64,000 nt of DNA from Gammaproteobacteria bacterium (GTDB lineage Bacteria; Pseudomonadota; Gammaproteobacteria; SZUA-229): assembly GCA_029882355.1 (NCBI GenBank), contig JAOUKV010000002.1, positions 19,870-83,869 on the forward strand, read 5' to 3'. Position 1 is the stretch's first letter. Every line of letters begins with the position of its first letter. Made by a program: the position numbers. Shown here piece by piece: positions 12,001-15,000 of the stretch.

Positions 12001-15000
12001 CTAACACGACGATATCATCAAGCCATTGTTTTCTTGACTTTGCCGCCCAGCGAATTAAGTCACCACTAATATCAGGAACAATATAGCCTTTCCTTAATAG
12101 CACAATAGAGGCTGCAGCTATTAAAATATTAATATCGCCTTCATCATTTCTTGTTGATAATGCATTTTTTATAAACGACTCTGACTTTCTTTCAGAGAAA
12201 TCCAACATAAAGTCTAATGCATCATCATTTTCTAACAATCCCGGTCCCCAAGTGCCCATATAACCTCCTGAATAAGTGTTGTCCTATAATTTAGTACCGT
12301 AAATTGGATAGAATGATTTTCAGAAACCCCAACGATATAATTAGTTACGCTACTGGCAGTGAATTATGTTTCAGTAACCCCAAAAACTCCCCAAAAGGCA
12401 CCGGCCTCGAATACACATAACCCTGCCCATAATCACACCCAAACTCATCCAGTTGCACACTTTCATTTTTTTCTTCAATGCCTTCGGCAATGACTTTCAT
12501 ATTCAGATTTTTTGCCAGCAACGAAATAGTGCGAACAATTTCCATACTGCGTTCATTGCTGAACATGGCATTAACAAACGACTGGTCAATTTTAAGTGTG
12601 TCGATGGGAAAGCGGTGTAAATAGCTAAAGCTTGAATAACCGGTGCCGAAGTCGTCAATCGCAATACTAAAACCAGCCGCTTTTAATTTGTTTAAACTTA
12701 TTTCTGCAAGTTCCGGGTTGGTCATGAGTATGCTTTCGGTGATTTCAAGTTTTATGCAGTCGTTATCTATATCCGCATTTTTGACAGCATTTTCTATATC
12801 TGCCATGAATGATTCAGATTCAAACTGTACAGCTGACAGATTGATGCTCATGTAAATATTTTGATGTTTTCTAAATTCATGAGCAGCAAAACAGGCTTGT
12901 TCTGTAATCCATTTTCCTAGTGGAATGATTAATCCTGTTTTTTCAGCAAGACTAATAAACTGGTCTGGTGGTGTGAAACCGAGCGTTGGGCTATTCCATC
13001 GGATTAGCGCTTCGCAACCGGCGATAGTACCCTGTGGCATATTTACAATAGGTTGATAATAGAGTTCAAACTCATTGTTATCGAGCGCGTTTTTAAGATT
13101 ATTTTCTTTGGTAATGCTATCGCTGGTCGATTCCAGATCTTTGTTTATATAATCTGCTGCGTGGCTAGAAACCTGTCGATGTGTAATTGCCGTAGCAAGC
13201 TTGCTCGAAAGTTTGAGGTATTGCGAAAAAAAACTGCTGATGGTGCTATTTGAAGAGTCGCTTTCGTGTTCTTTTAAGCTCTCAGAAACATCGTGCAGCC
13301 GGGCATAAATATCGCGATAACGTTCCAGTACGACCTGAAGCAACATGCGCACAGTAGGGTTGGAGAGTTCGATTTTCTGGGCAATATAATCTCGCGAGAT
13401 TATTAATAATTCCACATCTGTTTTAGCGATGGCAGTGGCAGATCGAAAATCATTATCGATCAGTGCCATCTCACCAAATAGTTCACCTTTTTCCAATGTG
13501 GCGAAGACAGAAGGGGTGCCGTTGATGAGCATCGATAACTCGACTTCACCATTTTGGATAATATAGGCGCAATCACCGGGAGCACCTTGCTGAAAAATCA
13601 GTGTGCCAGCGGTAATAGTTCTTGTGAGTCCTGTGTCCATGAGCAGCCTGTTAACCTCTAATCATGAGCTTAGCTGTGAGTATAGACCTAAATGCCGAGC
13701 TTGAAAAATAGCTGGTTATGAAGAAAAGATAGCCTGTGCTTTTCCCAGGTCAGCAGGTGTATCGACAGACAGGCTATGAAAATTCTCAATCACAGTCACA
13801 TGAATATCAATATCATTTTCCAGTGCCCTAAGTTGTTCCAGGCTTTCGGTTTTTTCTAAAGGTGTCTGCTCGGTTTCGGTAATGGCTTGTAGTGTGGCGC
13901 GGGTGTAGATGTAAATGCCGATGTGTCCCAGTGCCTGTTCGGGCAGCTCGCCGTTGTGACATAGGGGGATGCAGCTTCTGGAAAAATACAGGGCGTTGCC
14001 GTTGTTTTTTCTGACGACTTTGACGGTGTGTGGTTCTTGCATGATTTCTTTGTCGTGAATGTGATGCGCTAGTGTACCCATAGTCGGACTTTGCTGATTA
14101 ATAAAATCAACAGTGAGTTTATCGATGTGGTCGGGGTCGAGCAGTACTTCATCGCCCTGTATATTGACGAAGACATCAGCATCCGAATGCTGGTTCATGT
14201 ATTCAGCGATACGGTCGGTGCCGCAGGCACATTCAGTCGATGTCATTACTGCATGATGCCCTGCTTCGATAACCGTATTTAAAATCCTTTCGTCATCGGT
14301 TAGCACCACTACATCGTGTAATTGCTTTGCCTGTTTGGCTCTTTCCAGCACATGCAGTACCATGGGTTTGCCTGCGATGTCGCACAGCGGTTTTCCAGGT
14401 AAACGGGTCGAGGCGTAACGACTCGGTATGCAGCCTATAATTTTCATATGGTATTCAGAGCCCGTATTTGGTTTATGCTTGTCATATATTAGGGGGGGCG
14501 TGCAAAGGTCTCAAGTAATAAATATTAATTTTGCAGAAATAGGAACGACTAATGAATGATTCCAGTTCAAATCTGACCAAATCCTCAACTGGTTTACTTA
14601 AACAGGCTGCGGATAGCATCGCTCAGGTTATTTTGGGTAAGGACGATCAAATACGTCTGGCATTAACCTGTCTGGTGGCGCAAGGGCATTTGTTGATCGA
14701 AGATACGCCCGGTGTCGGCAAAACTACGCTGGCACATACCATCGCGCAGGTTATGGGGCTGGACTTCCAGCGTATTCAGTTTACCAGTGATTTATTACCC
14801 GCCGATATTCTGGGTGCGGCAATTTATAATCGGGAGCAGGCTGCCTTTGAGTTTCACAAAGGGCCGGTGTTTTCCAATTTTATTCTGGCTGATGAAGTTA
14901 ATCGCGCGACACCTAAAACACAGAGCGCCTTGCTGGAGGCGATGGAAGAACGTCAGGTAACGGTGGAAGGTGAAACGCGCAAGTTGCCTCAGCCGTTCTT

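Follow-up and report, generated by a model that had tools for sequence, protein, structure and literature searches.

A probable cyclic nucleotide-responsive c-di-GMP phosphodiesterase of the Bd1971 type encoded by an uncultured gammaproteobacterium

We have analyzed a gene for a cyclic nucleotide monophosphate (cNMP)-binding and EAL domain protein that lies in 64,000 nucleotides of DNA from an uncultured gammaproteobacterium (assembly GCA_029882355.1, contig JAOUKV010000002.1, positions 19,870 to 83,869); this whole stretch is called the window. The gene starts with ATG, comprises 431 codons and occupies exactly positions 12345..13640 of the minus strand. By analogy with Bd1971 of Bdellovibrio bacteriovorus HD100, its product is probably a soluble, homodimeric cyclic di-GMP (c-di-GMP) phosphodiesterase. 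The features of the gene are listed here in order of residue number, with the basis of each in brackets; AF2 denotes an AlphaFold2 model and pLDDT its local confidence score (predicted local distance difference test).

12345..13640, minus strand: complete cNMP_binding-EAL gene, 431 aa, product predicted cytoplasmic (open reading frame (ORF), Pfam, exact-sequence look-up, PDB match)
13371..13622, minus strand: cNMP-binding beta-sandwich, Pfam match at residues 7-90 (PF00027; AF2 strands 6-82, pLDDT 83-94)
13437..13478, minus strand: phosphate-binding cassette (PBC), F55-GEMALIDNDFRSA-68 (translation and alignment to Bd1971)
13257..13394, minus strand: hinge helix (83-91) and long C-helix (95-128) (AF2 secondary structure; residue mapping to Bd1971)
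13137..13313, minus strand: connector, residues 110-168, from the C-helix to the start of the linker-helix alignment, where query residue 169 equals Bd1971 residue 137 (translation; alignment)
13080..13166, minus strand: linker helix before the EAL barrel, residues 159-187 (HMMER alignment to Bd1971; AF2 helix)
12402..13103, minus strand: EAL domain, residues 180-413 (PF00563; Foldseek)
12630..12656, minus strand: loop-6 motif DDFGTGYSS, residues 329-337, with the catalytic pair D329/D330 equivalent to Bd1971 D306/D307 (translation)

A sequence-only reading of this gene had described a CAP-family cNMP domain fused directly to an EAL domain with intact EAL, DDFGTGYSS and EGIE motifs, and with neither a transmembrane segment nor a REC domain as input. 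This description is borne out. Both Pfam domains score far above their cut-offs: cNMP_binding (PF00027) matches residues 7-90 with 78.2 bits (cut-off 27.5; E-value 4.6e-22) and EAL (PF00563) residues 180-413 with 250.5 bits (cut-off 31.3; E-value 1.8e-74). The three motifs are seen as E210-A-L212, residues 329-337 and E386-G-I-E389. A Pfam scan of the protein gave no further domain, neither REC nor helix-turn-helix (HTH), and no transmembrane segment was found, the highest 19-residue Kyte-Doolittle mean being 0.9. There is no room for a longer N-terminus: no other start codon stands between the preceding stop and the ATG, and kdsB, the gene upstream, ends at a distance of 75 bp. The protein is identical to NCBI MDH5387039.1, an 'EAL domain-containing protein' on a 162-kb contig of a Gammaproteobacteria bacterium metagenome-assembled genome. 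Twelve of 15 homologues at 79-99% identity are likewise exactly 431 aa long and the remainder are 430-434 aa, and both domains are kept in 119 of the best 120 database matches (42-99% identity). Judged from these sequences, the gene is under purifying maintenance.

The top PDB sequence match is Bd1971 (6HQ4/5/7; E-value 3.1e-80), which aligns over residues 13-109 and 169-424. Of the PDB matches listed, Bd1971 alone has an N-domain alignment that takes in the hinge and C-helix and ends at residue 109; the alignments of the listed kinase cNMP domains end at 86-91. The sensor is 39% identical to that of Bd1971 (38/97, ungapped), its residue numbers being one lower than those of Bd1971, and the linker helix together with the EAL domain is 44% identical. 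The six best Foldseek matches to the AF2 model are six Bd1971 chains (~429 columns, 35% identity, E-value ~1e-40). The root-mean-square deviation (rmsd) of the monomer model to these chains is large, 13-15 Å over 429-430 columns, because of domain placement.

Bd1971 (PDB 6HQ2-6HQ7) has been studied both structurally and enzymologically (Cadby et al., EMBO J 2019, PMC6717892). The apo enzyme has negligible activity, and cAMP or cGMP raises Mg2+-dependent turnover of c-di-GMP to pGpG about 8-fold (PMC6717892). It is a butterfly-shaped homodimer with a CAP-like sensor whose C-helix crosses to the other subunit; on ligand binding the PBC repacks, the sensor body swings in and space opens for the linker helix (PMC6717892). 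A hydrophobic wedge of the linker helix, formed by A140, L141 and I144 and packed between the sensor body and the C-helix, then fixes the EAL domains as an active 'open' dimer (PMC6717892). The earlier suggestion that c-di-GMP hydrolysis by the window protein would be gated by a cyclic nucleotide thus agrees with its homology to a protein in which such gating has been demonstrated biochemically and structurally. By the same literature, the accompanying remark that such a node is rarely characterised is an understatement of present knowledge: Bd1971 has been worked out in full, and full-length cNMP/EAL homologues were noted in many proteobacteria, in cyanobacteria and in some spirochetes and actinobacteria (PMC6717892).

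Conservation was assessed by aligning the window protein and 54 homologues (42-87% identity), and all family counts out of 55 given below refer to these 55 rows. The sensor begins almost at the N-terminus and does not have the N3A helical motif, as in Bd1971. All ligand contacts of the Bd1971 crystal structure have counterparts in the window protein; the functionally defined residues E58, M59, D63, R67/S68, A94, R108 and R110 of Bd1971 map to E57, M58, D62, R66/S67, S93, R107 and R109. The PBC, FGEMALIDNDFRSA, is identical to the Bd1971 cassette (F56-GEMALIDNQNRSA-69) at 12/14 positions. By transfer from the Bd1971 contacts, E57 would contact the ribose, M58 would stack on the base and R66/S67 would cradle the phosphate, R107 of the C-helix would cap the base, and R109 would pair with D62 of the other chain. 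Five positions (G56, E57, M58, R66 and R107) are invariant in 55/55; position 67 is S or T in 48/55, and 52/55 members have D62 and 51/55 have R109. The Bd1971 authors propose that a small residue at the Ala94 position permits the C-helix to cross over (PMC6717892). This position, 93 in the window protein, is S here and S, A, T, C or G in 55/55 and would serve as a predictor of crossover from sequence only. A degenerate pocket lacking the conserved Arg and Glu contacts had been named as an outcome that would speak against nucleotide gating. E57, R66, S67 and R107 are all present, and the first, second and fourth of these are invariant in the family, so the pocket is not degenerate. A preference for cAMP or for cGMP is not readable from the sequence: S67 is as in CRP and Bd1971, both nucleotides activate Bd1971, and the base-edge position 112 is variable.

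The catalytic set of the EAL domain, with roles assigned from the established EAL literature and the Bd1971 paper (PMC6717892), is complete and invariant in 55/55: E210, R214, N267, E299, E302, D329, D330, K350, E386, E389 and Q406. Loop 6 is invariant across the family save for T333 (54/55). In Foldseek comparisons the EAL barrel superposes on the active EAL domains of BifA, TBD1265, MorA, MucR and PdeA with TM-scores of 0.89-0.94 and an rmsd of 1.5-2.1 Å.

On these grounds a mechanism like that of Bd1971, in which binding of a cNMP activates the phosphodiesterase, appears to us probable. In this mechanism 3',5'-cAMP would bind the N-terminal CAP-like beta-sandwich. The same probably holds for cGMP, since S67 cannot discriminate between the two nucleotides and both activate Bd1971. 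The ligand would be held by E57 at the ribose, R66/S67 at the phosphate, M58 stacking on the base and R107 of the C-helix as a cap. The PBC would then repack on the hinge and C-helix, and the sensor body would swing toward the C-helix dimer axis, freeing room for the linker helix. That helix would keep the two EAL barrels in an 'open', catalytically competent dimer, which would cut c-di-GMP to pGpG with Mg2+, and the net effect would be that c-di-GMP is lowered as the cNMP rises. We infer the ligand and its binding, the activating sign of the response and the geometry of the dimer from Bd1971.

The window protein resembles Bd1971 in its domain order, in a sensor that runs from about residue 6 without N3A, in its PBC and pocket residues, in the linker helix and in the full EAL set. 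It differs in length (431 aa against 402 aa in Bd1971), and several of the differences weigh against a simple transfer of the mechanism. The connector, measured from the R109/R110 equivalent to the T172/A140 equivalent, is 62 residues long against 29 in Bd1971. It is Ser-rich and predicted helical; in Bd1971 (residues 111-135) it is glycine-rich with a short beta-extension, a feature that the window protein does not match. In the AF2 model the C-helix reaches residue 128, and a further helix spans 135-153 with a pLDDT of only 52-57. The hydrophobic wedge A140/L141/I144 corresponds to T172/S173/I176 and is thus only partly conserved. The base-edge residue N113 is replaced by Y112, at a position variable across the family, and R330, which moves upon substrate binding, is replaced by Q353 (R in 33 members, Q in 14, K in 5). 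The AF2 model, made from 55 homologues (mean pLDDT 84, predicted TM-score 0.71), is that of a monomer. Finally, no adenylate or guanylate cyclase is encoded by the scanned ORFs of at least 150 aa in the 64-kb window. Four further ORFs (DUF58, transglutaminase, PhoU and PHO4) were typed by synteny with two related contigs (L081 and L083) instead of by direct scan, and none of the four is a cyclase.

Residues 169-189 align by HMMER with Bd1971 linker-helix residues 137-157. Of the wedge columns, 172 is T or A in 49/55 (T 44, A 5), 173 is variable and 176 is L, I or V in 55/55; farther along the helix E179 is found in 49/55 and A185 is invariant. The distribution of connector length in the family is bimodal: 25 members have 23-38 residues and the other 30 have 62-78. 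In a neighbour-joining tree made without the connector the two classes fall largely into separate clades, with one exception (P0066). The long class conserves an amphipathic segment, which is SSFFSQYLKLSSKLATAIT in the window protein and appears as a QY..MQ.RI..AV pattern in relatives. The Bd1971 authors describe the connector region as poorly conserved among homologues (PMC6717892). We therefore regard the long connector as a difference between subfamilies that does not exclude the protein from the Bd1971 type. Judged by the alignment, the subfamily differences spare the ligand pocket and the active site. Being longer and predicted helical, the connector could nevertheless give a geometry of sensor-EAL coupling different from that of Bd1971.

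This leads to the strongest of the alternatives, an unlikely one in our judgement, in which the architecture is the same and the coupling inverted or altered. Here a change of register in the long connector would make the cNMP inhibit the phosphodiesterase, or the connector would take a second input such as a partner protein. The bimodal and largely clade-specific lengths, the conserved amphipathic pattern of the insert and the lack of conservation of the wedge residue L141 are in keeping with it, as is the reported interaction of Bd1971 with GGDEF proteins (PMC6717892). Against it, the parts that would act as a stator are kept, namely R107/R109, D62, the small residue at 93 and I176, E179, L182 and A185 of the linker helix; an inversion of sign is without precedent data in any cNMP-EAL protein, and the insert is predicted at low confidence. 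A related speculation, to which we give an equally low probability, is that the amphipathic helix at about 135-153 is an extra regulatory element, either a docking surface for a GGDEF partner or a coiled-coil signalling helix, that alters the gain or sign of cNMP control, and that the adjacency to kdsB might also tie expression to Kdo/lipopolysaccharide (LPS) synthesis. If this were true, the long-linker proteins would form a mechanistically distinct subclass of cNMP-EAL enzymes.

CAP-family domains of other proteins bind varied ligands. The N-terminal CAP fold might accordingly bind a ligand other than cAMP or cGMP, or only dimerise, with the EAL domain constitutive or otherwise controlled. 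In Bdellovibrio, Bd2879 carries a Bd1971-like sensor in which T65/S66 replace the R67/S68 cradle, and no cyclase gene is among the ORFs scanned in the window itself. The pocket argues otherwise, with E57 and R66 invariant, S or T at position 67 in 48/55 and a PBC that matches that of Bd1971 at 12/14 positions. So do the loci of more distant relatives. In a survey of ten such loci (37-49% identity), four (L087, L091, L002 and L003) carry a gene for a class III nucleotidyl cyclase (PF00211) no more than two genes from cNMP-EAL, and in three (L084, L087 and L091) an HDOD gene adjoins cNMP-EAL; the remaining loci have unrelated neighbour genes. The loci concerned are the following, with coordinates on their own sequences:

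L087 (Methylobacter), 6236-9254: CHASE2-cyclase gene by the cNMP-EAL gene
L091, 4497-5390 and 7352-7708: cyclase-FHA (Guanylate_cyc-FHA) locus
L002, 7926-9851: CHASE2-cyclase gene
L003 (Halomonadaceae), 2119-5920: CHASE2-cyclase gene, divergent, with a FecR-domain gene
L084, 4989-5852: locus with an adjacent HDOD gene

This adjacency of cyclase genes gives independent genomic support to the view that proteins of the family sense a cyclic nucleotide made by the cell itself. We hold a sensor for some other ligand, or one that only dimerises, to be quite improbable. The arrangement of cyclase, HDOD and cNMP-EAL genes, often with a FecR-domain gene, suggests a conserved signalling module. Our literature search found no description of a CHASE2-cyclase/cNMP-EAL gene cluster.

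Least probable is that the EAL domain binds c-di-GMP as a non-catalytic receptor in the manner of LapD or FimX. In its favour are weak, partial NCBIfam matches to LapD, CsrD and FimX-type models, which lie far below their cut-offs (LapD 76.5 bits against 1020). Against it, the residues for metal, general base and substrate are all present and invariant, loop 6 is intact, and the best EAL matches are active enzymes with TM-scores of about 0.9.

A contig profile scan with the family alignment returned mostly generic EAL proteins because the patterns used were EAL motifs; L001-L003 are the only full-length relatives among the matches listed, and the species of the window was not recovered. An exhaustive search of representative sequences with the sensor and linker (residues 1-190) gave 26,290 matches at E-values of 1e-3 or below and 3,130 at 1e-10 or below, mostly proteins with multiple cNMP domains, and so no usable family count.

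E. coli CRP/CAP and the CRP-FNR regulators share the CAP-fold cNMP sensor and the Glu, Arg and Ser ligand contacts, but their output is an HTH domain where an EAL domain stands here. The window protein has no HTH Pfam match, its C-terminal part is EAL, and the NCBIfam models for CRP (26 bits against a cut-off of 266), NtcA and FtrB score far below their cut-offs. CRP and Bd1971 both dimerise around the C-helix; in Bd1971, however, this helix is domain-swapped, the output domain is placed on the other side, and cGMP is an activator as well. Lcd1 of Leptospira (GAF-GGDEF) and the GAF-type phosphodiesterase Tlr0485 are alike in that cAMP directly controls an enzyme of c-di-GMP metabolism (PMC8846402), but in these proteins cAMP is sensed by GAF domains, and Lcd1 makes c-di-GMP instead of degrading it. 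The EAL barrels of TBD1265, RocR, BlrP1, PdeL/YahA, MorA and BifA superpose at 1.5-2.2 Å with 33-42% identity and have the same catalytic residues; their inputs are different (REC, BLUF, LuxR-type HTH, PAS-GGDEF) and act on another regulatory side of the barrel. In a 2022 review Bd1971 is the sole case of a cNMP_binding domain among the tabulated nucleotide-sensing c-di-GMP enzymes (PMC8846402).

If the Bd1971-like mechanism holds, a rise in cAMP or cGMP would cause this uncultured gammaproteobacterium to lower its c-di-GMP. Two second-messenger systems would in this way be linked directly, and such systems usually control whether cells are motile or sessile. The host of Bd1971 is a predator, whereas the organism of the window is, as far as is known, not one, and its protein is known here from sequence. 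The cNMP-EAL architecture is common and already characterised through Bd1971, and cNMP gating is the accepted functional hypothesis for it. The finding is therefore of incremental value and opens no long-standing question. With it the Bd1971-type enzymes gain a member from an environmental gammaproteobacterium, and the cyclase and HDOD genes adjacent in several lineages provide genomic evidence on the logic by which the family signals. Mild novelty attaches only to the longer, predicted helical connector, present in 30/55 of the sampled family members; we infer that its ~30 additional residues may bear on how the sensor is coupled to the EAL domain.

The immediate neighbours of the gene are:

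13716-14447, minus strand: kdsB, CMP-Kdo synthetase (NCBIfam 280 bits)
10568-12259, minus strand: DUF4259 and leucine-rich-repeat (LRR) gene, 563 aa (ORF, Pfam)

The order on the minus strand is kdsB, a gap of 75 bp, cNMP-EAL, a gap of 85 bp and the DUF4259-LRR gene; ubiX and mpl converge on these from the plus strand, and MoxR, DUF58 and transglutaminase genes diverge on the other side. Contigs whose cNMP-EAL protein is 85-86% identical display the synteny glnE, PHO4 and PhoU (phosphate transport), TgpA, DUF58, MoxR, kdsB, cNMP-EAL, ubiX, mpl, pyrC, RNase T, REC-GGDEF. Every relative down to 66% identity (L088) has kdsB directly upstream of cNMP-EAL and in the same orientation. The slot between cNMP-EAL and ubiX varies: it is empty in L081 and L082 (4 bp), and in L083 it holds a gene of 244 aa that has no Pfam match and is unrelated to the LRR protein.

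In the sequence-only reading, the cNMP-EAL and LRR genes share one somewhat AT-rich stretch. As to composition this stands weakly: GC content is 41.5% in the cNMP-EAL gene, 43.2% on average in the window and 44.5-50% in the flanking genes, and only the LRR gene is clearly deviant (34.6% GC; 29% at third codon positions). The implied tie between the two genes does not stand, since relatives keep the kdsB to ubiX synteny with cNMP-EAL and without the LRR gene. A single, horizontally acquired AT-rich island holding both genes was considered and rejected in view of synteny and GC content. From the same two lines of evidence, cNMP-EAL belongs to the syntenic core and the LRR gene alone looks like a strain-specific insertion, that is, strain-specific cargo in a small hot spot. 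The two genes are adjacent by accident of insertion and are not a functional pair. The sequence around the LRR insertion was searched for repeats, and neither direct nor inverted ones that would point to a mobile element flank it. A promoter and terminator scan of 10300-14700 gave no excess over shuffled sequence, with 16 promoter-like matches against 12.8 +/- 3.0 and 4 terminator-like matches against 3.2.

Some further features of the locus were observed in passing. The triad of genes for a MoxR AAA+ ATPase, a DUF58 protein and a TgpA-type transglutaminase (14552-18473, plus strand), divergent from kdsB, is kept in L081, L083 and L088. In L088, kdsB (4217-4910) is called in two pieces of 87 and 146 aa, preceded by kdsA and a kdsC-like gene; the split call suggests a frameshift or assembly error.

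Two other genes of the window encode GGDEF proteins. At 4810-5760 (minus strand), about 6.6 kb from cNMP-EAL, lies a receiver-GGDEF response regulator with the degenerate motif RLDNDIF in place of GG(D/E)EF; judged by this motif it is probably non-catalytic, and the gene is kept in the same synteny in L081 and L083. The gene at 61866-62702 (plus strand) encodes a membrane-anchored GGDEF protein of 278 aa, predicted as a likely active diguanylate cyclase. Its GGEEF motif is intact and is preceded, at a distance of five residues, by an RxxD I-site (RDIDTVARIGGEEF).

At 100-1920 (plus strand) the window encodes a membrane protein of 606 aa with a HAMP domain (287-337) and a weak PAS match (361-438); its last ~170 residues show no recognisable output domain. 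Genes for the LPS inner core and lipid A make up a large region at ~24900-49990, in which GC falls to 33-39% between 29 and 40 kb. This region contains an HldE-like PfkB and cytidylyltransferase, five GT9 heptosyltransferase paralogues, a carbamoyltransferase, FkbM and other methyltransferases, GT1, GT2 and GT4 genes, a UDP-glucose dehydrogenase, an epimerase, a sulfatase-family (EptA-like) gene, a WaaP-like Kdo kinase, KdtA and a lipid A acyltransferase.

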